A stretch of 32,000 bases of DNA from Candidatus Saccharimonadota bacterium (GTDB lineage Bacteria; Patescibacteriota; Microgenomatia; UBA1406; GWC2-37-13), in NCBI GenBank assembly GCA_016699265.1, contig CP064967.1, forward strand, positions 390,001 through 422,000, written 5' to 3'. The notes beneath the pieces are model-generated. The model was given only the letters and a program-made list of their open reading frames with translations, had not been told where the DNA came from and made no database searches. Below are positions 4,396-30,650 of this stretch, one piece after another. Within the stretch, counting starts at the first letter, position 1; every line of letters starts with the position of its first letter. A program made the position numbers and the translations under genes.

Positions 4396-4437
4396 GTTTT
4401 AATACTCCAAACAATGATTATACTATAAGACTGAGTT

Positions 4438-4472
4438 AGTATCTAGTATGTAGTATTTAGTATCTAGTATTT
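4438..4472. repeat. Heptad array, five direct AGTATnT units
   Basis: The units read AGTATCT AGTATGT AGTATTT AGTATCT AGTATTT. The array abuts the frame-corrected sortase stop (4471-4473). On the minus strand it lies just upstream of TATAGTATAAT..GGAG..ATG of the degraded GT2. Confidence 0.9.
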
Positions 4473-4511
4473 AGCGCATTGCGACAATCTCATTTTCAAG
4501 AGTTGCAACGA

Positions 4512-5036: not shown

Positions 5037-5078
5037 CGTATATCGTATTTCGTATACCGTATTCAGTATTACGTATTC
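5037..5078. repeat. Heptad array, six direct CGTATnn units
   Basis: The units read CGTATAT CGTATTT CGTATAC CGTATTC AGTATTA CGTATTC. The array fills the gap between the surface-protein stop (5082) and the sortase ATG (5030). Confidence 0.9.
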
Positions 5079-5688: not shown

Positions 5689-7323
5689 CTAGACAATCTC
5701 GTCACGTTTTTGGCGAACAAAGGAGATCCATTCTTCGATGACCTCTATGATCATCTTGAACGGTGCTTCGATTATGAAATCGAAGATGAAGGTAATGAAG
5801 TTAAGGTGGGATAAGCTTCTGCTCAGGAACTTCCCGACCGATAGTATTGGCATAAAGAAAAAGTCAGTAAACGGTCTGAAGACAGCCTCTCCTTCCGGTA
5901 GTTGGTACTGTTTTGCAGTTTGGCGAATTCTATATGCAAAGAAGGTCACAACCGATACGAAGAACATAAACAAAAGTTTGCTAATAGCATTAAATCCAAA
6001 TATGCTGAGCAGGGCATTAATTAGCCCGAAGGTTATAAAAAACGTGATGGAATAGAAGATGGTAAAGACAAAGATTCTGGATGGATTTTGCACTTTGTTC
6101 TCCTTAGTGACCAGTGAAAGCGTTGTCTCAAACTCATTGTCGCTGTCTAGAATCTCGACAATCCGCTGGTATATTCTCTTTGTATTTTTTGCATCTGGAA
6201 TCTTAGTAAAGGTAGCAATTAGAAACATAAGAAGTGGTGGGATAACCGTATTTACTATTAGCGAAAAATAGTTAACCTCACCATAGATCAAAAGCGATAT
6301 AGGATACTCAAGAATAATAGCCAAAAGCATCTTAGTTATAAAGATGTAAACGATTGCTTTCAGTGCTAGGGTCTGAAGACGTGATTGTGAGGCTGAGTAC
6401 TTCTCTCGACAGATCTGATCCACATCGTTCAGTAGAAGTTCTGGGTTTGCCAAAATGTCTTTAGCTTCTATTCCACGTCGCTGTACAAGGTCGGCAAGAA
6501 TGAGGAAAGGTGGTTTGTGAAAGTTAACAAACCTTCTGAGACGATCGGTGTTTGGGTTGTTTATAATACTGTCAATTTTGTGAAAAAGATTTGGAAGTTT
6601 TGGAATGAGCACATCTATCTGTTGTTCGGTTTGTTGCGACAAAGGTTTCTCAGAAAGAGTAAATAGATGGTAACGAAGATAGGCAATGTCACTTTGATTG
6701 TATCCTTTTTCTATCGCGACAAAAAATGAGGCATTCTTTTCTTCCTCAGTTACCTTTTCGATCTTAATTTTTTTCTTAAGAACCTGAAACATAAAAAAAG
6801 TAAACAGGGAGTGTTGTTTGGCCTCAACTGGCTGCAAGGTTTCCTCTATCTCACTGGACATCATGTGGACGAGAAACTGGCGTATAAAGATGCGATTTGC
6901 GGTTTTCTGACCGATGAGTAGTTGGTCTAAAATTCTTTTATAGATATCGATGATATGCTGGATCTGAATGGCGTGGGGTGCGCCAAGTGATTCATTGGGA
7001 AAGTATCGAGCCCAAAGGAGCTCTCGAATAATATTCTCACCTTCGTTAGTTCCCATTGGATTCATCGACATTCTGCGGCGTAGTATTCGTTCTATGGCAG
7101 CTCGTCGAATTAGGTGTGCGTCACGGTACTCAACCGCATTTCGAAGACGTTCGTAAGCAAGCGCAAAAAAGGTAACAGTTTGAGAAACTGAAATCTTAGA
7201 AAGATCATCGGGAGCTGTGGGAGACTTTATTTTCTTGAACTGCTCAAGAAGCGCCGTTGTATACTTAGAAAGTACAATTTGATCTGCCATAACAGTCCAT
7301 AGTATACTATAAGCCCTCCTCAT
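5689..7323 (-). CDS. Hypothetical membrane protein with a soluble N-terminal half and a multi-TM C-terminal half
   Basis: This is a 544-aa uninterrupted ORF. The C-terminal ~220 aa hold several long hydrophobic segments. I recognised no family motif. Confidence 0.6.
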   Translation of the reverse strand: MRRAYSILWTVMADQIVLSKYTTALLEQFKKIKSPTAPDDLSKISVSQTVTFFALAYERLRNAVEYRDAHLIRRAAIERILRRRMSMNPMGTNEGENIIRELLWARYFPNESLGAPHAIQIQHIIDIYKRILDQLLIGQKTANRIFIRQFLVHMMSSEIEETLQPVEAKQHSLFTFFMFQVLKKKIKIEKVTEEEKNASFFVAIEKGYNQSDIAYLRYHLFTLSEKPLSQQTEQQIDVLIPKLPNLFHKIDSIINNPNTDRLRRFVNFHKPPFLILADLVQRRGIEAKDILANPELLLNDVDQICREKYSASQSRLQTLALKAIVYIFITKMLLAIILEYPISLLIYGEVNYFSLIVNTVIPPLLMFLIATFTKIPDAKNTKRIYQRIVEILDSDNEFETTLSLVTKENKVQNPSRIFVFTIFYSITFFITFGLINALLSIFGFNAISKLLFMFFVSVVTFFAYRIRQTAKQYQLPEGEAVFRPFTDFFFMPILSVGKFLSRSLSHLNFITFIFDFIIEAPFKMIIEVIEEWISFVRQKRDEIV

Positions 7324-7380: not shown

Positions 7381-8747
7381 ATGAAAGAACGATTACGCGG
7401 TGCAGCAACTGGTAGATCAGACAACGCTCTTTGCGAAAGAATTTGTATCGACTGTCAGCCAAGCTCAAAGCTATTCCAGTTGGCATAGGTCTTCTTGGTC
7501 TTGCAAGTGTGGGAGTCATAACGTGGAGACATCACAGAGAGCTTCTTTACAAAAGTCTCGAACTTGATCCTTATTTTAAAAAATGGTCGATTTGGAGGAG
7601 AGTGTCTGATCGATAGAGAATGGACCCACGATATTTCGGCATTTCTACACAGAATTCATCACGTAAATGGCAGATGCGTCTCTGTTCCCTTCTACCAGAT
7701 ATCTAGAGCGGCCCGATGGTTGGAAGATAATCCTGAGATGAAGACAAAGTTAGGTTCCTAATGAATTTAAACATCTAGATCCTTTTGTAGACATATTTAC
7801 GAGAGATCAGGTGCTTCAATTGGGATGCTAGCCGATGAGGAGATAAAACAAGACTTGAGTCGGAGTATAAGGAGCCCGACTGGTACTCGGAAAAAGAGCT
7901 AAGTGATTTATTTAATCCTACTGAGCCTCTATATTGGGTCGATGCCGGAAGACGGCAGGCAGGAAAATACTCAACTGAAGAGATGGCTAGAATTCTTCTG
8001 ACCGATCCTCACTCCCCGCTTTACAACGTCCTAAAATGGCAGACTAAATGGTGTAAGAGCAGAAATTCTCAACAATGTAAGGGACTATAAAGTTGCAGGA
8101 AATTTATTTAAAGCAGAGCCGGCATCGAAGCCAGATGACCTTAAGGGAAACCGATGATCAAGAGCTCATCATGTAGTAGCAGATATCTTAGCTGGATTCG
8201 TCTTTCGCCGAAAGTTGCTGCTCTTGTGATAAAAGGCAAATATCAGCCGAAGGATATTGGTCTTGCCATTGTTGCCGGTAGCGCAGCGAATGGTGTAAAG
8301 ATGTTAGCTGGCTTATCTGGTGGAAATATTACGAATGGACTGGGACACGACGGACCTCTTACTGCAAGAGATTTATTACGTGCATTATCCAAAAAAGATT
8401 ATCAGATCAAAATAAACTCTGATGGATCGATCTCAACCAACACGGTTTATACAGGATTTATTGGTAGGATTTTAAGCTGGATTACATACGACGAGGTAGG
8501 AGGACAGGACGAGCACCATAAATTTCCAGACAAGATAGCATATACGAGTAGAACCGGTCGAGACGCTATTATTGATGCGCCATGGGGTAGTTTCACATCG
8601 TACTTGGCTCACAACAAGAACTTCGGATTTATAAAGCCCGGAAATGGATTCGATCTGAAGGAAGGAGAGAAACGACCCGACATGCCACATGAAGGCGTTG
8701 AGATTATTCAATCTATCCGAGCCGCTCAGTTTGCGGCATCTTCTTAA
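7381..8747 (+). pseudogene. Membrane fatty-acid-desaturase-like gene remnant (His-box family), fragmented
   Basis: His-box-like strings lie in different frames: WRHHRELL, HRIHH and GGQDEHHKFP (resembling the HxxHH..FP third box). Only the last 197 aa form a long ORF. The family assignment is weak. Confidence 0.35.
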
Positions 8748-8762
8748 AGACGAAACCTCACT

Positions 8763-9986
8763 CTAAGCTCGAAGAGGATATAAATCATTAATTCTGGTCA
8801 GTTCTGCGATCAGCTCTTTTCGATCCATCCCGAGTTGCGCTGCGAACTCACGTGTAGTTGGAGGACACTTTCCTGAGTCAAGCATCGAGAGTATGGTCCA
8901 TTGTTTTCTGGTGAGGCCAAGGTTGCCAATTTCAGCATCTGAAGAAGGGGTTACCAAAGGGGCGTTTCTTCCATGCTCATCTGCAGTAAAATTATCTCGA
9001 AGTAATGCAAGCCCGTCAGTGTAGATACTTTTTGCAAAATCTATGGATCTGCCTGTTGCCTCCGCTATTTCGGACCAAGTTTGTTCCCTACCGTCAAATA
9101 TTCCGGTCCTACGTCGAATGACCTCACCTACAACTCGAGGTAACTCAGCAAGCAAACGCATTGCCTCATCTGAAGCGTGATTTTGGAGCGCAACCTCATA
9201 CGCAGGCGTAGTGCCTCTATCCTCGAGAAACTCCTCCAGAGTATAGTCCTTCTGAGGACCTTTAACCGTTGCAACGGGTTCCTGGATTGATCTGAAATGT
9301 TGCGCTATCTTTGCTTTCAGTACCTCGTCAACTTCTACGATAGGAATTTGCATACGATCTGCGATTTGCTCAGGAGAAATTTGTTCTGTGCCAAATTTCT
9401 GAACAAGATCAGCTACAGTTGTATCAACTGCTTTCGACAGACGATTGAGGTCTTCGGGAAGCCTGACTGGATTCCCCATTTGCCCCACCAGCTTTGATAT
9501 CCTACTGCGAATCTCCCTCGATGAAAAGGTAGTGAATCTAAATCCTCGCTCAACCTCAAATCGCTCAACTGCACGCATCAGGCCTATATTTCCTTCCTGA
9601 ACCAAGTCCTCCAGAGCGACACCTTTCCCTTGGTATCGATTGGCGAGGCAAACCACGTATCTGAGATTGTGAAGTGTAAGGTCGTCGGTAAGATATTGAA
9701 TAGCTGGACCGTTTCCATGCTGCCGAGCCTCGTCAAGCAGACGAAATCTTTGTGCATGTTCGTTATGAGTGTATACCGGAACGCTGCCAATGGCCCGCTT
9801 ATACTCCGCAAAGGATGACACTGCCATTACTTCCTGCAAAGATCTCGGTCGAGTTTCAGTCGTTAATCTCGTTTCCCTTTCGTGTATTGCCATAAAAATA
9901 TCTGAAGAACAGAAAGGTATATTATAGCTTTTTGAGGCTCTATAATCAATTAATAACTCGAAGTATTCATCTTGCACGTTGGCCAC
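8763..9986 (-). CDS. Sigma-70 family factor (group-3-like) with an extra C-terminal HTH segment
   Basis: Region 2 reads LEDLVQEGNIGLMRAVERFEVERGFRFTTFSSREIRSRI. Regions 3 and 4.2 are present (TWSEIAEATGRSIDFAKSIYTDGLALLR). An additional ~70 aa includes LTRKQWTILSMLDSGKCPPTTREFAAQLGMDRKELIAELTRI. The start codon is GTG. Confidence 0.85.
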   Translation of the reverse strand: MANVQDEYFELLIDYRASKSYNIPFCSSDIFMAIHERETRLTTETRPRSLQEVMAVSSFAEYKRAIGSVPVYTHNEHAQRFRLLDEARQHGNGPAIQYLTDDLTLHNLRYVVCLANRYQGKGVALEDLVQEGNIGLMRAVERFEVERGFRFTTFSSREIRSRISKLVGQMGNPVRLPEDLNRLSKAVDTTVADLVQKFGTEQISPEQIADRMQIPIVEVDEVLKAKIAQHFRSIQEPVATVKGPQKDYTLEEFLEDRGTTPAYEVALQNHASDEAMRLLAELPRVVGEVIRRRTGIFDGREQTWSEIAEATGRSIDFAKSIYTDGLALLRDNFTADEHGRNAPLVTPSSDAEIGNLGLTRKQWTILSMLDSGKCPPTTREFAAQLGMDRKELIAELTRINDLYPLRA

Positions 9987-12105: not shown

Positions 12106-12195
12106 CGTATTTCGTATAACGTATAGCGTATAACGTATCAAGTATAAATCATAATGTTTGAATACGGAATACGAGATACCAAATACGGTATACTG
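12106..12195. repeat. Dyad heptad array: 6 x CGTATnn, a 13-nt centre, then 5 x nATACnn
   Basis: The left arm (12106-12147) reads CGTATTT CGTATAA CGTATAG CGTATAA CGTATCA AGTATAA. The right arm (12161-12195) reads AATACGG AATACGA GATACCA AATACGG TATACTG. The array occupies almost the whole spacer between the divergent starts at 12105 and 12201. Confidence 0.92.
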
Positions 12196-12200
12196 AAAAT

Positions 12201-16126: not shown

Positions 16127-16132
16127 ATTATA
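16127..16132 (-). promoter_or_regulatory. TATAAT box 7 nt upstream of the ruvC ATG
   Basis: The minus strand reads AGATACT AGATACC AGATAAT TTATAAT-TGGCTCT-ATG. Confidence 0.4.
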
Positions 16133-16140
16133 AATTATCT

Positions 16141-16154
16141 GGTATCTAGTATCT
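16141..16154. repeat. Two heptad units, GGTATCT AGTATCT
   Basis: These are the same unit type as 4438-4472. They overlap the stop of the 16153-16593 gene. Confidence 0.7.
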
Positions 16155-16593
16155 AGGTCGTGAAGTAATGTTTAGCAGATTTTTTAAATGCAAGAACAAG
16201 TATCGTAATAAACATGACTATACCCAGAGGTGCCGAATTTCCTAATGACATTAATAAGCTAAATATGGCACCGAAGAGAAACAGCTTTCTCATTTTCTTA
16301 TTCAAAGCGAACAAAGTTATGCTTGGAAAAATGGCAAAGTAAGTAAAATAGCCAATAATACGTCCTGGATTATCTAGAAATATGGGATAAGTTGAGTTAT
16401 AAGATTGGCCCTGCAATCTAGCTAGGAAGCCATAGTAAAAGTCCCCAATAAAACCATTTCCAGGTGTATAGCCTACTGCTGGCTGAAATGCTGCAAGTAA
16501 GGAAATGCTTAGCACCAAAAAAATTACAGTGTAGATCTGAATTTTAAGAATTATTTTAATCCACTTTACTGATTTTGAAGGTATTCTAGCCAT
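16153..16593 (-). CDS. Hypothetical membrane protein
   Basis: The 146-aa ORF has about four hydrophobic segments. A near-consensus promoter lies directly upstream. Confidence 0.5.
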   Translation of the reverse strand: MARIPSKSVKWIKIILKIQIYTVIFLVLSISLLAAFQPAVGYTPGNGFIGDFYYGFLARLQGQSYNSTYPIFLDNPGRIIGYFTYFAIFPSITLFALNKKMRKLFLFGAIFSLLMSLGNSAPLGIVMFITILVLAFKKSAKHYFTT

Positions 16594-16716: not shown

Positions 16717-19938
<3,222 letters not shown>

Positions 19939-20303: not shown

Positions 20304-20317
20304 AATCCCCAATAGAC

Positions 20318-20377
20318 CGTAAAACGCGTAACGTAGAGCATAAAAAAAGCTCTATGTTTCAAGTTCTATATTCTATG
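20318..20377. repeat. Dyad heptad array with 3 + 4 units around an A-rich centre
   Basis: It reads CGTAAAA CGCGTAA CGTAGAG | CATAAAAAAAG | CTCTATG TTTCAAG TTCTATA TTCTATG. In transcript sense it lies 14 nt upstream of tRNA-Ala. Confidence 0.75.
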
Positions 20378-20511
20378 TTGTGGTTAGTTAAAGAAGGCGG
20401 ATAGGATAGCAGAAATTGTAGTTGCTAACCAATGCCTCAGTTAAGGTCAAAAACCATGTGTAAAGGTATTTTACACAAAGCTAGGGCGATAAGTCAAACG
20501 ATATATCGCAC

Positions 20512-22495: not shown

Positions 22496-22552
22496 AAGTG
22501 AGTATTCTAACAGATCTAAGAAAGATATTTGCTTTCTACAGTCGTTTATATG

Positions 22553-22558
22553 TATATT
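22553..22558 (+). promoter_or_regulatory. TATATT box 6 nt upstream of the ppsA ATG
   Basis: The sequence is TGTATATT-AAATGT-ATG(22565). Confidence 0.35.
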
Positions 22559-22564
22559 AAATGT

Positions 22565-24935
22565 ATGGTGAAAAAGAACATCGTTTGGTTTGAGGAGGTT
22601 GGAAAAGAGGATGTTGGGCTTGTTGGGGGAAAGGGTGCCAATCTAGGTGAGATGACGAATGCGCGTCTTCCCATACCATACGGATTTGTGCTTACCTCTC
22701 ATGCCTACTTCGAGTTTATTGAACACAATGCTCTTGCGCCTAAGATAAAGAAATTTCTTGACTCAGTAAATACAGACAATCCTCACGAGCTTCAGCAGGT
22801 ATCGAAGGAGATTCAAAAAATGATTCTTGACGCAGATGTTCCTAGCTCAATATCGAAACAGGTTGTCGAATACTACAAAAATCTTACTTTAAAGGAAGAG
22901 GAGTACTATACTAACTCGTCTTCAGTTGCCTCAAAATTTACCAAGGCTTTAAAACATGCCTATCGGCCAGTCGCTGTCGCTGTGAGATCATCGGCCACAG
23001 CAGAAGACCTTCCAGGGGCGTCTTTTGCAGGACAGCAAGAGACATATCTAAACGTTTTCGGTGAAACAGAGCTACTTAAGAAGGTTCAGGAGTGTTGGGC
23101 ATCTCTTTTTACTGAGAGAGCTATCTATTATCGACATCACCAAGGATTTGATCATTTTAAGGTTGGACTTGCTGCGGTAGTTCAGCGTATGGTCCAGTCT
23201 GATAAATCCGGTATCGCTTTTAGTATCGATCCGGTTACCAATGATAAATCGAAGATTGTAGTCGAGGCAATAGTAGGACTCGGTGAGTACATTGTGCAAG
23301 GCAAGGTGACTCCTGATCATTACGAAATAGATAAGAGATCCTTTGTCATAACCAAAAAAGAGGTAAAGTATCAAAATCTCAAATACGTTAGGGCGGGGCA
23401 TGGTAATAGAGAGGTCAAGCTTAGCAAATCACAGGGCTCTAAACTTAAACTTTCTGATCAGGAAATCGTAACTGTAGCGCTATTGGTCAAACAAATTGAG
23501 GACCATTACTTTTTCCCTCAAGATATTGAGTGGGCAATTGAAGGAGATAAGACTTCTATAGTTCAGTCACGACCGATTACTACAATTAAGAATGAAGAAT
23601 CTAGTATCAAGAATAAAGGAAACGAAGATAAAAACAAAAACTCAGATATTGTTTCAACGCAAGCTAAATTGGTGATGCCAATTGTTGTTGGAGCACCAGC
23701 TTCACCAGGAATGGTAACGGGGCCGGTCAGGATTATTCACTCACCCAGTGAAATAGATAAAATATCCAAGGGAGATATTCTGGTTGCGCCACAGACAAAT
23801 CCAGACTACGTTCCTGCAATGAAGAAAGCCGCTGCAATTGTAACGGAAAAGGGAGGAAGAACGTCGCATGCGGCAATAGTTTCACGAGAGCTTGGAATAC
23901 CTGCGGTTGTTGGAGCAGAGTCTGCCACAACGAAACTAAAAAACGGGGAGATAGTTACTGTTAATGGAAGTACCGGTGAGGTTTTCAAAGGTGCGATCAG
24001 TGGTTCCACCTCCGCTAAAGCTTCAGCGAAAGAGCAGGCAAAACTTATCGCCGAAGACCGAAATCTGAAAACTTTAACTAAGGTATATATTAACTTGGCT
24101 GAACCAGAGCAAGCGGAAAAACTCGCCAAACGTCATATCGATGGAATCGCCTTTGCGTGCTGAGTTTATGATAGCGGGTATTGGAACACATCCAAAGTAT
24201 CTAATCACTGGGAGACAACATGAGTTTGTTCGAAATTAACAAACGATCTCATTAAGTTCGTAAAACCATTTAATCCCCGACCAGTTATCTATCGAGCAAC
24301 TGATTTTAAGACAAACGAATATAAAAACCTCAAATGGTGCGGAGTTCGAAAACAGGAAGAAAACCCAATGCTTGGTTTCCGAGTGCTTCACGTTACATTG
24401 CAGATCCGGAAGAGTTTATGTTGGAGCTCGAGGCAATCGCAAATATCTGGAAAATGGGGTACAGTAATCTTCATTTGATGATACCGTTCATCAGAAGACC
24501 ATGGGAACTTATTCAGATCAAAGCAATGATCACAAAGCTGGCCTTTTCAATCTTCCTGGATTTAGATTGCTCATTATGGTTGAGGTTCCAGCGGCTGCAC
24601 TCGAACTTGAGAACTTTCTGAAGATTGGGGTCGATGGTGTCTCGATTGGAACGAATGATTTAACAATGATGCTTCTTGGGTTGACCGGACAATGAACATG
24701 TAGCTTCGGTTTATGACGAAAGATCGGACGCCGTTGTCGAGTACTTGAACATATCGTAAAGACCTGCGTAAAATATAAAGTAAGTTGTTCAATCTGTGGT
24801 CAGGCAGCGTCCGACTACTCAGAGCTAGTAGAGAAATTGGTCATAGGGATTACGAGCGTATCGGTAAATCCAGATGCGATTGAGCGAACAAGAAGATTGA
24901 TCTATGACATTGAGCGAGCACATTTTAAAAACTAG
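22565..24935 (+). pseudogene. ppsA: Phosphoenolpyruvate synthase; N-terminal two thirds open, C-terminal PEP-binding domain multiply frameshifted
   Basis: The N-terminus reads VKKNIVWFEEVGKEDVGLVGGKGANLGEMT. The phosphohistidine loop GGRTSHAAIVSRELGIPAVVG is present. After ~24150 the TIM-barrel strings are spread over all three frames: LRAEFMIAGIGTHP, PVIYRATDFKTNEY, ENPMLGFR, MIPFIRRPWEL, IMVEVPAAAL, GVSIGTNDLT, SICGQAASDY and ITSVSVNPDAIERTRRLI. Confidence 0.75.
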
Positions 24936-24993
24936 CGAAAATAGCTACAAAGCTAAATGGTTGACATGCTTAAAGCTATGCAGCCATCCAGCC

Positions 24994-26265
24994 ATGTTAA
25001 CTATTAAACAAATTACCGCCTACGAAATAATTGACTCAAGAGGTTATCCTACTGTTGAAGCAGCTGCATTAATGAGTAACGGGCGTACTATTAGGACAAG
25101 CGTACCATCTGGAACTTCTGTCGGGAAGTATGAAGCTCTAGAACTACGTGATAAAGATGACAAGAGATTTGATGGAATGGGAGTTACAAAGTCCGTAAGT
25201 ATCATCAATGATGTACTTGCACCTAAATTAGTTGGAGTTTCTCCCAGTAAATTCAGAGAAATTGACGAATGGATGATTAAGGCAGATGGAACTAAGAATA
25301 AGAGCAAGCTAGGTGGCAATACCACTCTTGCTATGTCTCAGCTTTTTATTAAGTCCGCCGCTCAGGAAGAAGGAATGTCTACATACAGTTTTGTTAATAG
25401 AGAGTATAAAAATAGGTTTAAGTCAGAGATGCCGTTACAGAAAATACCTACACCAATCTTTAATATTATTAACGGTGGAAAACATGCGAATAATAATCTC
25501 GAGTTCCAAGAGTTCCAGGTAATTCCTTCATCATCACTCCCCTACACCAAGGCTTATCAGATCGGAGTCGAGATTTTTCACGAACTTAAAAGAGTCTTGC
25601 TTTATAGAAATGCAAATGTCTCGGTTGGAGAAGAGGGAGGATTTGCACCAAACTTCACAACGAACATAGACGCAATTGAGGTAATTAATGAAACAGTACT
25701 TCAAAAAAATCTTAAGATGGGACTCGATATATTTCTTGGACTCGATGTGGCTTCTTCACATTTTTTCAAGGATGATAGATATTATGTAAAGGATAAGCCC
25801 CATCCTTTAACAAAAGATGAGTACCTTGAGTTTATTGTCAGCCTCACAAAAAACTATTCTTTATTATGTCTTGAGGATCCTCTAAATCAAGATGACTTTG
25901 AAGGTTGGTCAAAACTATTAAAAACTATGGCCCGTGACATTTATCTTATTGGGGACGATCTTCTTGCAACTAATAAAGAAAGACTTCTCAGAGCTATTAA
26001 GGATAAAGCATGTAGCATGGTGCTCGTGAAACCAAATCAAATTGGAACTATCTCAGAAATCATGGAGGTTGTTCAGATAGCTAAGGCAAATGATCTTGCC
26101 GTGCTGGTATCCCATAGATCGGGAGAAACAAATGATGACTTTATTGCAGACTTTGCTGTTGGAGTTCAGGCAGACTTCGTTAAGTTTGGAGCACCTTCAC
26201 GAGGTGAGCGCGTCGCAAAGTACAATCGTCTCTGGCAGATTGAACGAGAAAAACTCTCTAAGTAA
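24994..26265 (+). CDS. eno: Enolase
   Basis: MLTIKQITAYEIIDSRGYPTVEAA.. begins at the internal ATG 24994. The motifs SHRSGETND and KPNQIGT are present. Confidence 0.95.
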   Translation: MLTIKQITAYEIIDSRGYPTVEAAALMSNGRTIRTSVPSGTSVGKYEALELRDKDDKRFDGMGVTKSVSIINDVLAPKLVGVSPSKFREIDEWMIKADGTKNKSKLGGNTTLAMSQLFIKSAAQEEGMSTYSFVNREYKNRFKSEMPLQKIPTPIFNIINGGKHANNNLEFQEFQVIPSSSLPYTKAYQIGVEIFHELKRVLLYRNANVSVGEEGGFAPNFTTNIDAIEVINETVLQKNLKMGLDIFLGLDVASSHFFKDDRYYVKDKPHPLTKDEYLEFIVSLTKNYSLLCLEDPLNQDDFEGWSKLLKTMARDIYLIGDDLLATNKERLLRAIKDKACSMVLVKPNQIGTISEIMEVVQIAKANDLAVLVSHRSGETNDDFIADFAVGVQADFVKFGAPSRGERVAKYNRLWQIEREKLSK

Positions 26266-26268
26266 CTT

Positions 26269-26355
26269 CGTATTCCGTATATCGTATCGCGTATTTCGTA
26301 TTCTGTGCTATATTTTGCTCTATACTAGATACGTTATACCAAATACGATATACGA
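26269..26355. repeat. Dyad heptad array: 5-6 x CGTATnn, a centre, then 5 x nATACnn
   Basis: The left arm reads CGTATTC CGTATAT CGTATCG CGTATTT CGTATTC (TGTGCTA). The right arm reads TATACTA GATACGT TATACCA AATACGA TATACGA and ends 3 nt before the ruvA ATG. CGTATATCGTAT (26276-26287) is the exact reverse complement of 26343-26354. Confidence 0.92.
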
Positions 26356-26358
26356 ATC

Positions 26359-26936
26359 ATGATAGGTAGAATAAAAGGCAAACTAGTTGAGATCAATGGG
26401 AACATTGGTCTTGTTGAAACTTCATCAGGGCTTTCGTACGAAGTTTTTCTTCCACCAGCTTTATGCTCATCCGTCTAAACACCGCAGTAAGATTGAGACA
26501 CATCTTAGGTCCGTGACGACGCTCACATTCTGTTTGGCTTAGGATAAAAAGATAAAGAGTTATTTAAGCTTCTACTTTCAGTTTCGAGTTGGACCAAAAA
26601 CTGCATTTCAGGTCACTTATACTGGTAGCGATGAACTGATCTCGGCAGTTCAGACGAATGACGTTGCTATTTTCAAAAATTCCAGGACTCGGAAAGACTC
26701 AAAGAAAATTATTCTTGAACTTTCCAGAAACTGAAGTCGAGTTCGATATGCAAAAATGAATCTAAGCGATGAAGACAAAACGGTAGTTATGCACTTATGG
26801 CTCTTGGTTACAAATCTCAAGAAGCAAAAAACAAGCTCTCAGTAAAATTTCAAAAGGATTATCGATTGAAGAAAAAATAAAAGAAGCCCTCAAAAACACT
26901 GCTACAAAAATAACTTTTAACTGCTCACGCTCATAA
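26359..26936 (+). pseudogene. ruvA: Holliday junction DNA helicase RuvA, heavily frameshifted
   Basis: MIGRIKGKLVEINGNIGLVETSSGLSYEVFLPP is followed by RuvA-like strings in shifting frames: VRDDAHILFG, KDKELFKLLLSVS, VGPKTAFQV, SDELISAVQTNDVAIF, KKIILEL and LSIEEKIKEALKN. Confidence 0.7.
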
Positions 26937-27008
26937 ATTCTTTTCCAGATTACCACGTATCCAAATATGAAAGAAATTCGAAGAATGGGGATTTATTTGG
27001 CTTTGGAG

Positions 27009-27014
27009 TATAAT
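27009..27014 (+). promoter_or_regulatory. TATAAT box 7 nt upstream of the ruvB ATG
   Basis: The sequence is GGAGTATAAT-TGGAAGC-ATG(27022). The GGAG 13 nt upstream could instead be a distant SD. Confidence 0.35.
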
Positions 27015-27021
27015 TGGAAGC

Positions 27022-28002
27022 ATGTCAGGAAATGAGATTACAACGCTTAGACCTTTAAAGATTACTGAGTATATCGGGCAGAGTGCGGCGGTACGAACTC
27101 TAAAAGTATTTATAGAAGCGGTTAAGAAAAAGGGTTTGCCAACAGAGCACATTCTGCTCTATGGACCTCCAGGAATTGGAAAAACTACGTTAGCAAACAT
27201 CATAGCTCATGAACTCGATGGAGAGATGAAGGTCACATCGGGTGCCGCAATGCAAAAGTCTGGAGATCTTGCAGCGATACTTACCAATCTTAAGGACAAT
27301 GACATCTTATTTATTGATGAAATTCATCGACTACCTAAAACGGTTGAAGAGATGCTCTACCCCGTTATGGAGGACTACTTTCTAGACATAATTATCGGCA
27401 AAGGTCCTTCTGCCCGTACCGTTCGACTACCGATTCCACGGATTACGATAGTAGGTGCCACGACTCGACTCGCTTTATTATCTGCGCCACTTCGTGACAG
27501 GTTTGGACTTCTGATGAGACTAGACTACTACACAGATTCAGAAATGGAGAAGATTGTAGATAGATCGGCCAACCTCCTTAATATGAAGATTGCAAAAAAT
27601 GTGGCAAAGGAAATAGCAAAAAGGTCTCGCCGTACTCCCCGACTCGCAAACAGAATTATTAAGCGCGCTCATGACATGTTAGTTGTGAATAAGCATGCTG
27701 AGATTTCAGAGACAGTATTGACCGAATTGTTTTCTTTGTTGGAGCTTGATAACTTTGGACTTACCGATGTTGATAGAAAATACCTAAAGACTATAGGAGT
27801 TAAGTTTCAGAATGTGCCAATTGGTGTAAATACGATCGCTTCTGCCATGTCGGAAGATATTCAGACGATTGAGGACTTCATTGAACCATATCTCTTACAG
27901 ATTGGCTTTTTGAAAAGAACCTCAAGAGGACGACAGCTTACTCCAAAAGCCTTGCTACACCTCGGTGTAAAGGGTGATCCCGATCAACCACAGCTGGTAT
28001 AA
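27022..28002 (+). CDS. ruvB: Holliday junction DNA helicase RuvB
   Basis: The 326-aa ORF has Walker A GPPGIGKTT and Walker B ILFIDEIHRL, followed by TTRLALLSAPLRDRFG. Confidence 0.95.
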   Translation: MSGNEITTLRPLKITEYIGQSAAVRTLKVFIEAVKKKGLPTEHILLYGPPGIGKTTLANIIAHELDGEMKVTSGAAMQKSGDLAAILTNLKDNDILFIDEIHRLPKTVEEMLYPVMEDYFLDIIIGKGPSARTVRLPIPRITIVGATTRLALLSAPLRDRFGLLMRLDYYTDSEMEKIVDRSANLLNMKIAKNVAKEIAKRSRRTPRLANRIIKRAHDMLVVNKHAEISETVLTELFSLLELDNFGLTDVDRKYLKTIGVKFQNVPIGVNTIASAMSEDIQTIEDFIEPYLLQIGFLKRTSRGRQLTPKALLHLGVKGDPDQPQLV

Positions 28003-28006
28003 TAAT

Positions 28007-28091
28007 CGTAGAGCGTGTAGCGCGCATCGTTTATCGCAAGAATTATCATGCCTTGAGATACACGTTACACGATTTGCGATTCGTGATTTTG
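28007..28091. repeat. Dyad heptad array anchored on CG every 7 nt
   Basis: The left arm reads CGTAGAG CGTGTAG CGCGCAT CGTTTAT CGCAAGA, followed by a 15-nt centre. The right arm reads GATACAC GTTACAC GATTTGC GATTCGT GATTTTG, which re-phased is nnnnnCG. It ends 2 nt before tRNA-Leu(UAA). Confidence 0.8.
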
Positions 28092-28093
28092 TA

Positions 28094-28176
28094 GCCGCGG
28101 TGGTGGAATGGCAGACACGCAGGACTTAAAATCCTGTGACCGCAAGGTCGTGAGCGTTCGACTCGCTCTCGCGGCA
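28094..28176 (+). tRNA. tRNA-Leu(UAA), class II, no encoded CCA
   Basis: The acceptor pairs GCCGCGG with TCGCGGC. The anticodon arm is CAGGA-CTTAAAA-TCCTG. There is a long variable arm, and the T arm is GAGCG-TTCGACT-CGCTC. Confidence 0.9.
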
Positions 28177-28180
28177 CATC

Positions 28181-28252
28181 CAGTAATCAGATTTCGGTTT
28201 TCAGTTTTCAGTCATTATGATCTGACAACTAATCACTGACCACTGATAACTG
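28181..28252. repeat. Dyad heptad array: 5 x CAGnnnn, a 6-nt centre, then 5 x CTGnnnn
   Basis: It reads CAGTAAT CAGATTT CGGTTTT CAGTTTT CAGTCAT | TATGAT | CTGACAA CTAATCA CTGACCA CTGATAA CTG... It lies between tRNA-Leu(UAA) and tRNA-Thr and runs up to the tRNA-Thr 5' end. Confidence 0.88.
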
Positions 28253-28257
28253 TCCCA

Positions 28258-28331
28258 GCCCTTCTAGCTCAATGGCAGAGCAGCTGTTTTGTAAACAGTC
28301 GACTGCAGTTCGATTCTGCAGAAGGGCTCCA
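28258..28331 (+). tRNA. tRNA-Thr(UGU), CCA encoded
   Basis: The structure is GCCCTTC TA GCTC AATGGCA GAGC A GCTGT TTTGTAA ACAGT CGAC TGCAG TTCGATT CTGCA GAAGGGC T CCA. Confidence 0.9.
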
Positions 28332-28473
28332 GCTTATATCTAAAGATAAAGCTGTTTTGTAAACAGTCCCGACCTCAGTCGGGGTTCTGCAGAAGGGCTC
28401 CAGCTTATATCTAAAGATAAAGCTGTTTTGTAAACAGTCCCGACCTCAGTCGGGGTTCTGCAGAAGGGCTCCA
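28332..28473 (+). repeat. Two identical tandem 71-bp units derived from the 3' two thirds of tRNA-Thr
   Basis: The unit is GCTTATATCTAAAGATAAA + GCTGTTTTGTAAACAGT + CCCGACCTCAGTCGGGG + TTCTGCAGAAGGGCTCCA. The second block is identical to the tRNA anticodon arm. The third is a new hairpin replacing the T-arm 5' half. The fourth is identical to the tRNA 3' end including CCA. The copies lie at 28332-28402 and 28403-28473. Confidence 0.95.
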
Positions 28474-28476
28474 GAC

Positions 28477-28917
28477 TTAGAAAGTGTTCGTCCTATTAGC
28501 GATAACAAGACCTTCGACTCGAATAATACTATCTTCGTAAGGACTTAAACTGCAAACGCCTCCTCCCTCCATCCTTAATACACCCTCAGGGTGCCTTATA
28601 TCCTTATTGAGAGTTATAGTACCGCCGATTCGTACGGAAATCAAAGAATCGATATCGGGCTGTTTCCTCATATACTCAATGAGTATAGGAGTAGCACAGA
28701 AATTTGGATCAATAGCTTTTAGAGATGCTGAGGCGCCATAAGGAATTGATAAAACGCCACCAGAAAAAACTGGTAATCTGTGAGAACCTTCTATGGCATG
28801 AGTTAGGACAAATATAGTAAATGGATTGGTAGTAAATTGAAGAAGTGATCTTCCCAATTTTTTACCAGATTCTGGTTGATTTGTTAATCTACTGCGGCTC
28901 TCAATGTTTCCCGACAT
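28477..28917 (-). CDS. Hypothetical protein
   Basis: This is a 146-aa ORF with no recognised motif. TATAAT (28928-28923) sits 5 nt upstream of its ATG. Confidence 0.5.
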   Translation of the reverse strand: MSGNIESRSRLTNQPESGKKLGRSLLQFTTNPFTIFVLTHAIEGSHRLPVFSGGVLSIPYGASASLKAIDPNFCATPILIEYMRKQPDIDSLISVRIGGTITLNKDIRHPEGVLRMEGGGVCSLSPYEDSIIRVEGLVIANRTNTF

Positions 28918-28922
28918 AACTA

Positions 28923-28928
28923 ATTATA
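28923..28928 (-). promoter_or_regulatory. TATAAT box 5 nt upstream of the ATG at 28917
   Basis: The minus strand reads AGTATAAT-TAGTT-ATG. Confidence 0.4.
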
Positions 28929-28959
28929 CTACAGGATATATAATATAAATATTTAAATT

Positions 28960-28968
28960 TGGTATAAT
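28960..28968 (+). promoter_or_regulatory. Extended -10 promoter TGGTATAAT facing the tRNA-Arg/tRNA-Leu pair
   Basis: TGnTATAAT lies at 28960-28968, ~60 nt upstream of tRNA-Arg. There is no good -35. Confidence 0.4.
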
Positions 28969-29027
28969 TCTTTATATCTTGTATTCCTACCTGTTGTCAG
29001 GAAGGACAAAGGTTTTTTTTGAATATA

Positions 29028-29099
29028 GACCCTGTAGTTCAACGGATAGAATAAGTCCCTTCTAAGGATTAGATCCGCGTTCGATTCGCGGTGGGGTCA
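29028..29099 (+). tRNA. tRNA-Arg(UCU)
   Basis: The structure is GACCCTG TA GTTC AACGGATA GAAT A AGTCC CTTCTAA GGATT AGAT CCGCG TTCGATT CGCGG TGGGGTC A. Confidence 0.88.
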
Positions 29100-29128
29100 C
29101 TCTTCTTGAATGTTATAATTGATAAATT

Positions 29129-29210
29129 GGGCAAGTGGTGAAACTGGTATACACGCAGTCTTGAGGAGGCTGTGCCGAAAGGCGTGGAGGTTCAAGTCCT
29201 CTCTTGCCCA
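29129..29210 (+). tRNA. tRNA-Leu(GAG), class II
   Basis: The acceptor pairs GGGCAAG with CTTGCCC. The anticodon arm is CAGTC-TTGAGGA-GGCTG. The variable arm contains GCCGAAAGGC, and the T arm is GGAGG-TTCAAGT-CCTCT. Confidence 0.88.
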
Positions 29211-29219
29211 CCCGATGCG

Positions 29220-29277
29220 TCCCGATTGTCATCGGGGTGCCCGAAAGGGCGTGGAGGTTCAAGTCCTCTTCCCGACA
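29220..29277 (+). other. tRNA-Leu 3'-half-like element (hairpin, variable arm, identical T arm, new acceptor 3' strand)
   Basis: The sequence is TCCCGATTGTCATCGGGG TGCCCGAAAGGGCG TGGAGGTTCAAGTCCTCT TCCCGAC A. The T arm is identical to the adjacent tRNA-Leu(GAG), and the variable stem is 1 bp longer. No 5' acceptor strand or D arm is present. Confidence 0.8.
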
Positions 29278-29282
29278 CTACT

Positions 29283-30650
29283 CTACTTTCTTGTTACTGT
29301 GTAGCTGTAAGGATAGTATAAAAATGCTGCTGGTAGCTCATCGACTAGTATTTTTTGAAAGTCGAGATATTCCTTCTTACGGTTTGCAGGCTCAATATAT
29401 TTTCTTCCATCCTCAAGTAATTTATCAATTCGAACATTTTTAATATTTACTATGTTGCCTCTGCCAGCTTGGGTTGAGTGCCAAAAAAAATACTGATCGG
29501 GGTCTGTTGGGATTTTCCAAAATGCCAAAAACATATCGAAATCATTCTGATTATCCGGTGTTCCATAGACTATGCTCGCGTTCAAACCTGCATCTTTCAG
29601 TGCATTCTCGATAATATTAGCTTGATCTTCATAGTCAAAGTATGATCGGATCGTAAGTTCAGCCGATACCGATGCAGTTGCAGGCTTGAGTTGCTTTCTT
29701 GCTTCTACCGGATCGTACAAACTTTTCTTTAACTGCGTGTTGTATGCCCAAGACGTGGGTGATATTGGTCCTTCTGCAAGTTCGCCGAATGCAGAAAGTG
29801 TTGGTCTGGGAATCGCTAATGAGATGCTTTTTCGAAAGTCTTTATCGGCAAGTGACTGTCTTGATTCATTAAAGAATAAGGTCAGTACGGTAGAGTAGTC
29901 AATCTCGCGTTCCACTTTCGTATTTTTCCAGCTCTTAAAGCCGTCGGCAACGCTTTTTCGATAGATCTTCATCTCAGTAATATTTCCGAGTTTGTAGGCA
30001 TTGATCATCTTTGTTTCGCTGTCGTAGAATCTATAGGTTAGAGGTTTTAGATCTTTTTTATTTGGTGTTAAAACTAATTCAATTACATTATTTTCCTGTC
30101 CTAGCTTCATTTTTTTAACTTTATAGTTTCCTACTACGCCATGCAGAGGATAGCGGATTAAAGGCTTTGTTAAATATGTGGGGAAAATAGTCAATGGCCT
30201 CTTAAGATTAAATTCAATTTGAAAATCGTCAATTTTTTTAACCTCAACATCCTGAAAATTAAACTCAAGATCTTCTGCAGTTAAAGATTTATTATCATCC
30301 CAAATTAGATTTTTTTTAAGATATATATTGAATTTTTTGCCATCTGCACTTCCTTCCCATCGCTGTGCGACTGCAGGCTTCACAACTCCCTGGTTATCTA
30401 TATAAACAAGACCATAAGAAATATTGTTCAGAATCTCAGAAGGTAATGAGAGTGGTTCGTAAGATCCAACCATTCCAACGACCCTTGTATCGGTGAGAAA
30501 TAATGCGTCAAGCTGGGATGAAAAAGAGAGCAAGCTCAAAATGAACAATAAGCTTAAAAAAAAACTCAAGAAAATCATCTTGTTATGTTTTTTTCCAAAC
30601 TCACGTATTAACCAGTAATAGTATCGGAAGGTGTTTCCTTGCTGGGTCAT
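29283..30650 (-). CDS. ABC transporter substrate-binding protein, family 5 (peptide/nickel type)
   Basis: The 455-aa ORF has an N-terminal TM/signal anchor. SBP_bac_5-like strings are present (VKPAVAQRWEGSADGKKFNIYLKKNLIWDD..LTAEDLEFNF). Confidence 0.8.
   Translation of the reverse strand: MTQQGNTFRYYYWLIREFGKKHNKMIFLSFFLSLLFILSLLSFSSQLDALFLTDTRVVGMVGSYEPLSLPSEILNNISYGLVYIDNQGVVKPAVAQRWEGSADGKKFNIYLKKNLIWDDNKSLTAEDLEFNFQDVEVKKIDDFQIEFNLKRPLTIFPTYLTKPLIRYPLHGVVGNYKVKKMKLGQENNVIELVLTPNKKDLKPLTYRFYDSETKMINAYKLGNITEMKIYRKSVADGFKSWKNTKVEREIDYSTVLTLFFNESRQSLADKDFRKSISLAIPRPTLSAFGELAEGPISPTSWAYNTQLKKSLYDPVEARKQLKPATASVSAELTIRSYFDYEDQANIIENALKDAGLNASIVYGTPDNQNDFDMFLAFWKIPTDPDQYFFWHSTQAGRGNIVNIKNVRIDKLLEDGRKYIEPANRKKEYLDFQKILVDELPAAFLYYPYSYTVTRK

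Follow-up and report, generated by a model that had tools for sequence, protein, structure and literature searches.

Intergenic heptamer repeats have been known since 1990. According to PMC4679880 and PMC4692102, heptamers rank first among the long simple repeats of most bacterial genomes in abundance or over-representation, slippage of the polymerase is their proposed cause, and heterocystous cyanobacteria carry short tandemly repeated repetitive (STRR) heptanucleotides (Mazel 1990 and Mrazek 2007, as summarised there). Xanthomonas contains about 185 GGGANTN arrays (GGGAATC type), mostly of four units and including 70 to 75 convergent inverted pairs per genome; most of them separate co-directional genes, and they are transcribed (Rehm et al. 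2015, PMC4692102). In Beggiatoaceae, Cyanobacteria, and Bacteroidetes, start codons are closely preceded by direct repeats of TAACTGA (MacGregor 2015, PMC4679880). Here, we describe heptamer arrays in a 32,000-nt stretch (the window) of the genome of a Candidatus Saccharimonadota bacterium, in particular array 1, located between ruvB and tRNA-Leu(UAA), and array 2, located between tRNA-Leu(UAA) and tRNA-Thr(UGU). The RuvB homologues and a 23S rRNA carrying a group I intron indicate a CPR/Patescibacteria bacterium of the Microgenomates/Roizmanbacteria kind. The kind of repeat is already known and, as in these other bacteria, has no established role; its setting in the candidate phyla radiation (CPR), its positions in tRNA and rRNA spacers, and the evidence of selection are new.

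Both arrays are local cases of a genome-wide intergenic class consisting of tandem 7-nt units in two mirror arms. The data covered about 32 kb of this genome and contig fragments of relatives (designated by L-numbers, e.g., L135), and the starts of open reading frames (ORFs) were mechanical calls. Self-similarity at a lag of 7 nt (at least 16 of 28 positions) was observed at 299 positions of the window, compared to 4 to 45 in shuffles, and among lags 3 to 12, lag 7 alone was enriched. Tandem Repeats Finder (TRF) called period 7 for nine arms, with unit matches of 67 to 87%, array 1 remaining below detection. The sequence-only reading of this DNA had reported heptad-periodic inverted repeats at 28007-28091 and 28181-28252, and these proved to be real: the patterns of five CG and of five CAG with period 7 had zero expected matches (100 dinucleotide shuffles), and contigs with an identical RuvB from six other same-species assemblies (NCBI MAG, JGI, ENA, and Logan runs) harbored identical copies of both arrays. 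We thus ruled out an assembly artefact, since the same arrays appear in independent assemblies. Unit copy number did not differ among the seven same-species sequences; it does vary between lineages. The general architecture with different cores that had been suggested also held, with two mirror arms of four to six heptads each surrounding an A+T-rich centre.

For array 1, five units opening with CG and five re-phased units ending in CG had been described; this stands throughout the left arm, whereas only three of the five units of the right arm carry CG in phase (28063, 28070, and 28077), the fourth reading TG and the fifth having lost it. The gene ruvB ends at 28002, and the left-arm units that follow are homologous to the CTTGTAG units of relatives. 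The predicted fold of array 1 is a hairpin spanning 28004-28081 (-28.7 kcal/mol, z-score of -2.7), a better but less periodic hairpin than that of array 2. Array 2 has a 6-nt centre, TATGAT, and its right arm, which has the consensus nnACTGA and resembles TAACTGA, ends 5 nt 5' of tRNA-Thr. Its CAG and CTG triplets had been said to pair every 7 nt with mostly mismatched bases between them. The predicted fold (-21.9 kcal/mol, z-score of -3.6) is indeed periodic, but the true core is 4 nt long, with TCAG/CTGA blocks paired and the intervening 2 to 3 nt unpaired.

Arrays of this class are not specific to tRNA genes, as most lie at protein-gene junctions and two tRNAs lack them. The window contains at least eight heptad arrays, all in intergenic spacers; five of the eight are at junctions of protein genes, and two of the five tRNAs, tRNA-Arg and tRNA-Leu(GAG), have no array; the proposed link to tRNA genes is not supported. 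CGTAT units occur at three loci of the window, and its arrays differ from one another in their centres and spacer bases (Table 1). The strong arrays fill their spacers: they begin where the preceding gene stops (at its stop codon or, for a tRNA, its 3' end) and extend to the start codon or tRNA 5' end of the following one, as does the enolase>ruvA dyad between the enolase stop codon (26263-26265) and the ruvA ATG (26359). All dyads of the window are predicted to fold as long imperfect hairpins (z-scores of -2.7 to -4.6). A shorter relative of the dyad upstream of tRNA-Ala(UGC) is present in L001.

Table 1. Coordinates of the arrays and adjoining features in the window
Feature	Position	Strand	Sequence and remarks
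TATAAT hexamer	27998..28003	+	overlaps ruvB stop codon TAA 28000-28002; invariant in 8/8 aligned lineages (65-100% RuvB identity)
Array 1, left arm	28007-28041	+	CGTAGAG CGTGTAG CGCGCAT CGTTTAT CGCAAGA; CG opens 5/5 units
Array 1, centre	28042-28056	+	15 nt, hairpin loop region
Array 1, right arm	28057-28091	+	GATACAC GTTACAC GATTTGC GATTCGT GATTTTG (also written ATACACG TTACACG ATTTGCG ATTCGTG ATTTTGT)
tRNA-Leu(UAA)	28094-28177	+	array 1 stops 2 nt upstream
Array 2, left arm	28181-28215	+	CAGTAAT CAGATTT CGGTTTT CAGTTTT CAGTCAT; five (T)CAGnnn heptads, one being CGG
Array 2, right arm	28222-28252	+	CTGACAA CTAATCA CTGACCA CTGATAA CTG; CTGAnnn heptads, one being CTA
tRNA-Thr(UGU)	28258..28331	+	
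Enolase>ruvA dyad	26269..26356	+	CGTATnn x5, 18-nt centre, ATACGnn x5
orf>pfkB dyad	12106..12196	+	CGTATnn x6, 14-nt centre, ATACGnn x5; genes divergent: orf11758-12141(-), pfkB(+)
Array upstream of sortase	5037..5078	+	direct-only CGTATnn x6; ATACG in sortase sense, 7 nt from its ATG
Array downstream of sortase	4437..4474	+	direct-only TAGTATn x5
Array just upstream of ruvC(-)	16128..16160	+	direct-only nTATCTn x4; TAGATAC in ruvC sense
Weaker dyad directly upstream of tRNA-Ala(UGC)	20304..20390	-	core inverted repeat TAGAGC...GCTCTA

All arrays scoring 18 or more were intergenic bar one. The exception is a period-7 stretch at 23576-23626 (GAATGAA GAATCTA GTATCAA GAATAAA) within the coding region of PPDK, which is kept in same-species contigs and is the sole strong lag-7 signal outside spacers. 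Three further identities for the arrays were dropped: integrase arm-type sites or att remnants, since the protein-gene arrays are far from any tRNA; iterons or replication origins, since there are eight arrays in 32 kb; and stop-codon insulators closing all frames, since the CGTAT core contains no stop codon.

Compared to the Xanthomonas arrays, those described here share the 7-nt unit, a typical size of about four units per array, and the mixture of conserved and free unit positions, as well as close pairs of opposite-strand arrays able to form a stem-loop. A further shared trait is that Xanthomonas arrays vary in length and sequence between close species while keeping their single or paired type. 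In contrast, the Xanthomonas units are G-rich and form G-quadruplexes, whereas the units found here (CGTATnn, TCAGnnn, and CGnGTAn) are A+T-rich and without G-tracts; in addition, the arrays here abut tRNA and rRNA genes and start codons, and one of them displays covariation and purifying selection. A resemblance to the TAACTGA repeats is seen in array 2, whose right arm can be read as CAACTAA TCACTGA CCACTGA TAACTG, and in L135, with TTACTGA GAACTGA; these repeats, too, are intergenic and forward and end a few nucleotides before the downstream gene, usually without a Shine-Dalgarno sequence. They are, however, direct repeats of two to six units with one inverted case reported, whereas here a reverse arm matches the forward arm and the downstream gene is a tRNA. 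With STRR sequences, the arrays have in common tandem intergenic 7-nt units, genome-specific unit families, and a proposed origin by slippage, but STRR repeats are mostly near-perfect and direct, while the units here are diverged (67 to 87% by TRF) and arranged as dyads. Finally, the repetitive extragenic palindromic (REP) sequences and REPINs (Bertels and Rainey 2011, PMC3116915) are likewise intergenic imperfect palindromes forming long hairpins, with species-specific sequences at similar positions and a GTAG motif that is also present in array 1 and its relatives; unlike the arrays, they lack 7-nt subrepeats and exist in many near-identical copies. Near-identical palindromic copies were not seen in the window, this genome's full gene set not having been searched for a REP-associated tyrosine transposase (RAYT).

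The comparison of relatives separates an old array from a young one. A dyad occupies the same position between ruvB and tRNA-Leu in relatives at 93 to 96% identity (L135, L197, L136, and L013) and in others with only 65 to 67% RuvB identity (L137, L138, and L144), and the dyads align unit by unit. L144, L138, L013, and L136 have the unit CTTGTAG/TTACAAG, whereas L135 shares CGTGTAG/TTACACG with the window. Because the dyads of close and of 65 to 67% relatives align in this way, array 1 is, as read from the alignments, an old element that was lost on the branch leading to L001-L006. In the latter, which have 87 to 88% RuvB identity, the ruvB>tRNA-Leu and tRNA-Leu>tRNA-Thr spacers measure 25 nt and 12 nt, respectively, and the lag-7 density is 0 to 0.6 per kb, compared to 9.3 per kb in the window. 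Heptad dyads stand by the same tRNA genes at 65 to 67% RuvB identity but are lost at 87 to 88%. The proposal that the layout is conserved rather than the sequence was wrong for array 1, which is homologous unit by unit and has slowly evolving arms. Between the window and L135, 6 of 35 (17%) and 8 of 34 (23%) positions of the two arms differ, while 7 of 15 (47%) differ in the centre, near the neutral rate, and 80 of 139 (58%) at 4-fold sites of ruvB. The arms of array 1 are thus under purifying selection, evolving about three times slower than 4-fold sites.

Array 1 also covaries. In an alignment of seven sequences representing about five lineages, 83% of the cells were paired unit to unit, compared to 30 to 44% when the partner was slid by one to three columns, and eight pairs had changed on both sides. 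The covariation score was 0.248 versus 0.163 in shuffles and was reached by 1 of 500 shuffles, and a U·G pair was kept in six of the seven sequences. Other spacers of relatives are filled with heptad dyads having other cores, namely, the tRNA-Thr>tRNA-Arg spacer of L139 and L144 and, in L137, L139, and L144, the spacer that follows tRNA-Ala and presumably leads to the 23S rRNA; the hairpins of relatives reach z-scores down to -6.4 (L144).

In the enolase>ruvA spacer, the units are CGTAT/ATACG in the window, CTTGTAG/CTACAAG in L136, and of the CGTG/TTACACG type in L135, and in L135 and L136 the family of this spacer is also that of the ruvB>tRNA-Leu spacer of the same genome. The units of an array, in both arms, thus change jointly from one genome to another.

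Array 2 is a young, fast-evolving, weakly constrained member of the heptad class. It is confined to the clade with at least 93% identity, and two strains differ by 6 substitutions in its 72 nt, compared to 6 in the 981 nt of their ruvB genes. Comparable TCAG/CTGA dyads are found around a tRNA-Thr gene of L007 that is unrelated.

We tentatively favour a reading in which the heptad period is a signature of mutational growth and the mirror layout is kept as a spacer hairpin punctuating polycistronic and pre-tRNA transcripts; its chance of being correct, in our judgment, falls a little short of even. Slippage-type duplication of heptamers would make the spacer DNA grow, and units and arms would later be partly homogenised, as the literature and the unit patterns suggest. 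The arrays occupy spacers between co-transcribed genes, and a transcript running across both arms would allow them to pair into a predicted hairpin of 25 to 35 bp with small periodic internal loops, a fold that in array 1 is backed by the covariation, the conserved U·G pair, and the purifying selection on the arms. Such a hairpin may serve as RNA punctuation, with the spacer folding on itself and sparing the neighbouring tRNA from interference. It could also offer a double-stranded substrate to a processing enzyme such as RNase III, or protect the 3' end of the ruvAB mRNA as a terminal hairpin after an RNase P cut at tRNA-Leu.

The strand on which the arrays fold best is in line with RNA. In 15 of 19 arrays, the sense strand gave the better fold of the two (P = 0.016), as it did in 14 of 19 when composition was controlled (P = 0.026), and G·U oppositions outnumbered A·C oppositions 66 to 36 (P = 0.004 against an expected share of 0.5), the strand tests being based on 19 to 22 arrays that include homologous sets and are not independent. 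This suggestive strand evidence, combined with the covariation and with the U·G pair that is kept, favours an RNA hairpin for array 1.

Several observations weigh against the hairpin reading. The strand bias is suggestive but weak once base composition is counted and the nonindependence of the arrays is considered, the G·U share being 0.65 versus a composition-expected 0.55 (P = 0.058). Hairpin stability is not kept in relatives at 93 to 95% identity, with z-scores of -0.8 for both L135 arrays and -1.3 for the L197 array. None of the six strain-level substitutions of array 2 is compensatory. Even in array 1, the clade of the window and L135 shows a change from T-A to G-C at one unit position in three unit pairs simultaneously, which looks like concerted change rather than pair-by-pair compensation; concerted change calls for slippage turnover combined with copying from arm to arm, for conversion among loci, or for a reader that co-evolves with the units. 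L001-L006, although syntenic, have no arrays and manage without them, and the RNA account comes from sequences. Three direct-only arrays cannot form hairpins, and the two arms of the pfkB dyad, which separates divergent genes, need not share one RNA. The arm beside a start codon is always of the ATAC type in the sense of the gene (sortase, orf12141, pfkB, ruvC, and ruvA). Lastly, none of the 27 CGTAT-family units, which come from three loci, departs from GTAT, whereas 15 and 17 of them are off consensus at positions 6 and 7, respectively (permutation P < 1e-5); pairing alone gives no full account, since GTAT is invariant and positions 6 and 7 are nearly random.

The invariant core next to free positions is one argument for sites read in DNA. 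A trans-acting factor could recognize a 4- to 5-bp core every 7 bp, with one subunit per heptad and in either orientation, or the arrays could be promoter-related elements, the hairpin potential then being a by-product of sites present in both orientations. Besides the core, the direct-only arrays, and the fixed orientation of units toward start codons, this explanation would account for the use of one unit family at several loci per genome (CGTAT at three loci in the window, CTTGTAG at enolase>ruvA and ruvB>tRNA-Leu in L136, and TTACACG at both in L135) and for the joint change of the units of an array between sister genomes. GTAT/ATAC heptads moreover persist upstream of pfkB and ruvC at only 72 to 75% PfkB identity, with the same ATAC orientation in both spacers. 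Many genes look leaderless, so that the arm beside the ATG overlies the promoter region, where TATACT or TATACG arises from the last units at roughly -12 to -7. We nevertheless consider a DNA reader, although a serious rival, rather unlikely. No candidate protein was identified among 20 window ORFs scanned against Pfam, at least three unrelated cores (YGTAK, TCAG, and TTAGC) would demand several different readers although the genome measures about 1 Mb, and promoters are hardly to be expected in spacers that separate one tRNA gene from another or tRNA-Ala from the 23S rRNA; furthermore, the conserved U·G pair, the unit-specific covariation of array 1, and the sense-strand bias point to RNA. 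A scan for consensus promoters and terminators (26100-29400) gave nothing above shuffle level at the arrays.

TATAAT-like hexamers 5 to 8 nt before start codons, without a Shine-Dalgarno sequence, were seen at 27022 (ruvB), 16119 (ruvC), 28917, 16593, and 12201 (pfkB); their position and the absent Shine-Dalgarno sequence suggest that many genes of the window may be leaderless. In several arrays, the last heptad itself forms such a TATAAT-like hexamer (TATACT or TATACG). The invariant TATAAT overlapping the ruvB stop codon may be the -10 hexamer of a putative promoter that drives the tRNA cluster.

A described protein that works in the manner of such a reader is the omega repressor of plasmid pSM19035, a ribbon-helix-helix protein binding WATCACW heptads. 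In its operators, which lie at promoters, 7 to 10 units of 7 bp follow one another without gaps in direct and inverted orientation, each having a 5-bp core between degenerate positions. Contiguous 7-bp sites, a 5-bp core, and both orientations are present here as well; the differences are that omega belongs to a plasmid system with a known protein, while here there are several core families and evidence for pairing at the RNA level. No ribbon-helix-helix match to Pfam was found among the 20 window ORFs scanned.

The arrays might be viewed as the cis half of a genome-wide "heptad code," in which a protein or RNA factor reads one 4- to 5-nt core per 7 nt in either orientation. In this speculative idea, to which we give a small chance of being true, the factor would label the majority of the boundaries of genes, tRNAs, and rRNAs in these reduced genomes while co-evolving with its hundreds of sites. 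Such a code would explain the joint change of all units at several loci between sister genomes and, if it were widespread, also the excess of heptamer repeats that bacteria show and for which an explanation is lacking.

Conversely, the arrays may have no function for the cell and represent by-products of heptamer slippage and palindromes, or small selfish palindromes of the REP/REPIN type that spacers alone tolerate and that turn over fast. The bare 25- and 12-nt spacers of the relatives at 87 to 88%, the 6 substitutions in 72 nt of array 2 and its restriction to the clade of at least 93% identity, and the decayed look of the L135 arrays all agree with this, as do the many arrays of other phyla that are perfect microsatellite-like runs and the RAYT-like Y1 transposase flanked by palindromes in a relative. 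On the other hand, the arms of array 1 evolve about three times slower than 4-fold sites, its place and register are kept across lineages with saturated synonymous divergence, and conservation is strongly nonuniform between core and spacer positions; neither near-identical dispersed copies nor target-site duplications were seen, and the palindrome flanking the RAYT-like gene is not a heptad array. We therefore think it unlikely that the arrays as a class are without function.

The RAYT-like gene just mentioned, a Y1 transposase gene at L206 7018-7662(-), is matched best by the family of REP-associated tyrosine transposases, with 63 bits where the cut-off is 80, and the palindrome GCCTGTACGACCTACGAGGTCGTACAGGC is found on both sides of it (6982-7010 and 7749-7779). 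A RAYT/REP origin of the arrays was rejected, this being the only such gene seen and its flanks a plain palindrome and not heptads. A REP/RAYT pair thus exists in the clade and is distinct from the heptad arrays.

Beyond the clade, a scan for four CGTATNN units in one genome per species found at least 120 loci in very diverse phyla, while we estimate about one match by chance (20 fixed bases, ~1.2e12 positions). Among the matches listed, an inverted ATACG arm was found within 110 nt in 22 of 120, compared to 11 of 600 control windows, only 1 of 120 arrays of other phyla was adjacent to a tRNA gene, and orientation toward gene starts (49 versus 32) was not decisive. The sole tRNA-adjacent case among those matches, in an unrelated metagenome-assembled genome (MAG), is a CGTAT array that fills the spacer between tRNA-Lys and tRNA-Leu (L072 1549-1788).

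The sequence-only reading had further likened array 2 to the sites of HutP, and the arrays were also considered as periodic sites at which a ring-shaped protein of the HutP or TRAP type would bind single-stranded RNA. HutP sites are two clusters of NAG triplets with 4-nt spacing, all in one RNA orientation, and the left arm of array 2 does have NAG triplets at this spacing. The analogy failed on the right arm, where the same RNA reads CUG, the arms being reverse complements; this mirror layout contradicts a HutP-type reading and fits a hairpin or a reader of double-stranded DNA. The cores of other arrays differ (CGTAT, CTTGTAG, and TTAGC), a terminator or antiterminator context was not found, no HutP match to Pfam was present among the 20 window ORFs scanned, and Rfam, searched over 27900-28500 at E values of up to 1, matched the tRNAs only and left the arrays unmatched. 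We regard such sites as highly improbable, and in annotation, arrays of this kind are not to be read as tRNA-specific leaders or HutP-like sites.

The clade offers a tractable case for the role of heptamer repeats. Its arrays are short and sit at defined places, between a stop and a start codon, between two tRNAs, or between a tRNA and the 23S rRNA; one is old enough to show selection and covariation, and there are sister genomes with and without arrays. GCA_017991865.1 and the genomes of L135, L136, and L144 are rich in arrays, whereas the sisters GCA_964404095.1 and GCA_964535635.1 are poor in them; the sources of GCA_017991865.1 and of JGI 3300043411 hold the species of the window. Two questions are testable here, namely, whether the arrays are RNA hairpins or DNA sites and what sets the 7-nt period.

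Additional observations concern the surrounding genes. At the gathering threshold, Rfam matched only tRNAs, the 23S rRNA, and a group I intron in the whole window, the intron lying within the 23S rRNA gene at 17048-17290 (-). PPDK (22529-24970) and ruvA (26359-26980) are broken by many small deletions and frameshifts compared to the same-species contigs L009, L010, and L134, in which both are intact; ruvA of the window shows dense third-position differences. The damage may reflect allelic difference, decay of this copy, or poor assembly quality along the stretch.

Downstream of array 2, a 71-nt unit repeated 2.8 times (28282-28479) copies the 3' two-thirds of tRNA-Thr(UGU), taking in the anticodon arm, a T arm that is altered, the 3' strand of the acceptor, and a spacer; L135 and L136 carry one tRNA-Thr gene and none of the copies. 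A remnant 3' half of a second tRNA-Leu(GAG) directly follows the intact gene (29214-29275) and resembles the version of the relatives. In the relatives at 87 to 88%, tRNA-Leu(GAG) is on the opposite strand, and the tRNA cluster has therefore been rearranged or replaced. Finally, a 5' fragment of tRNA-Leu(UAA) interrupted by the palindrome GCCTGCCTGCC...GGCAGGCAGG was found in L135 (6073-6145), L197, L007 (3533-3810), and L004 (~9033-9299), and in L004, L006, and L007 the interrupted fragment is followed by an 88-aa GIY-YIG ORF and then by a complete tRNA-Leu, which looks like a homing-type insertion that duplicated the 5' part of the tRNA.

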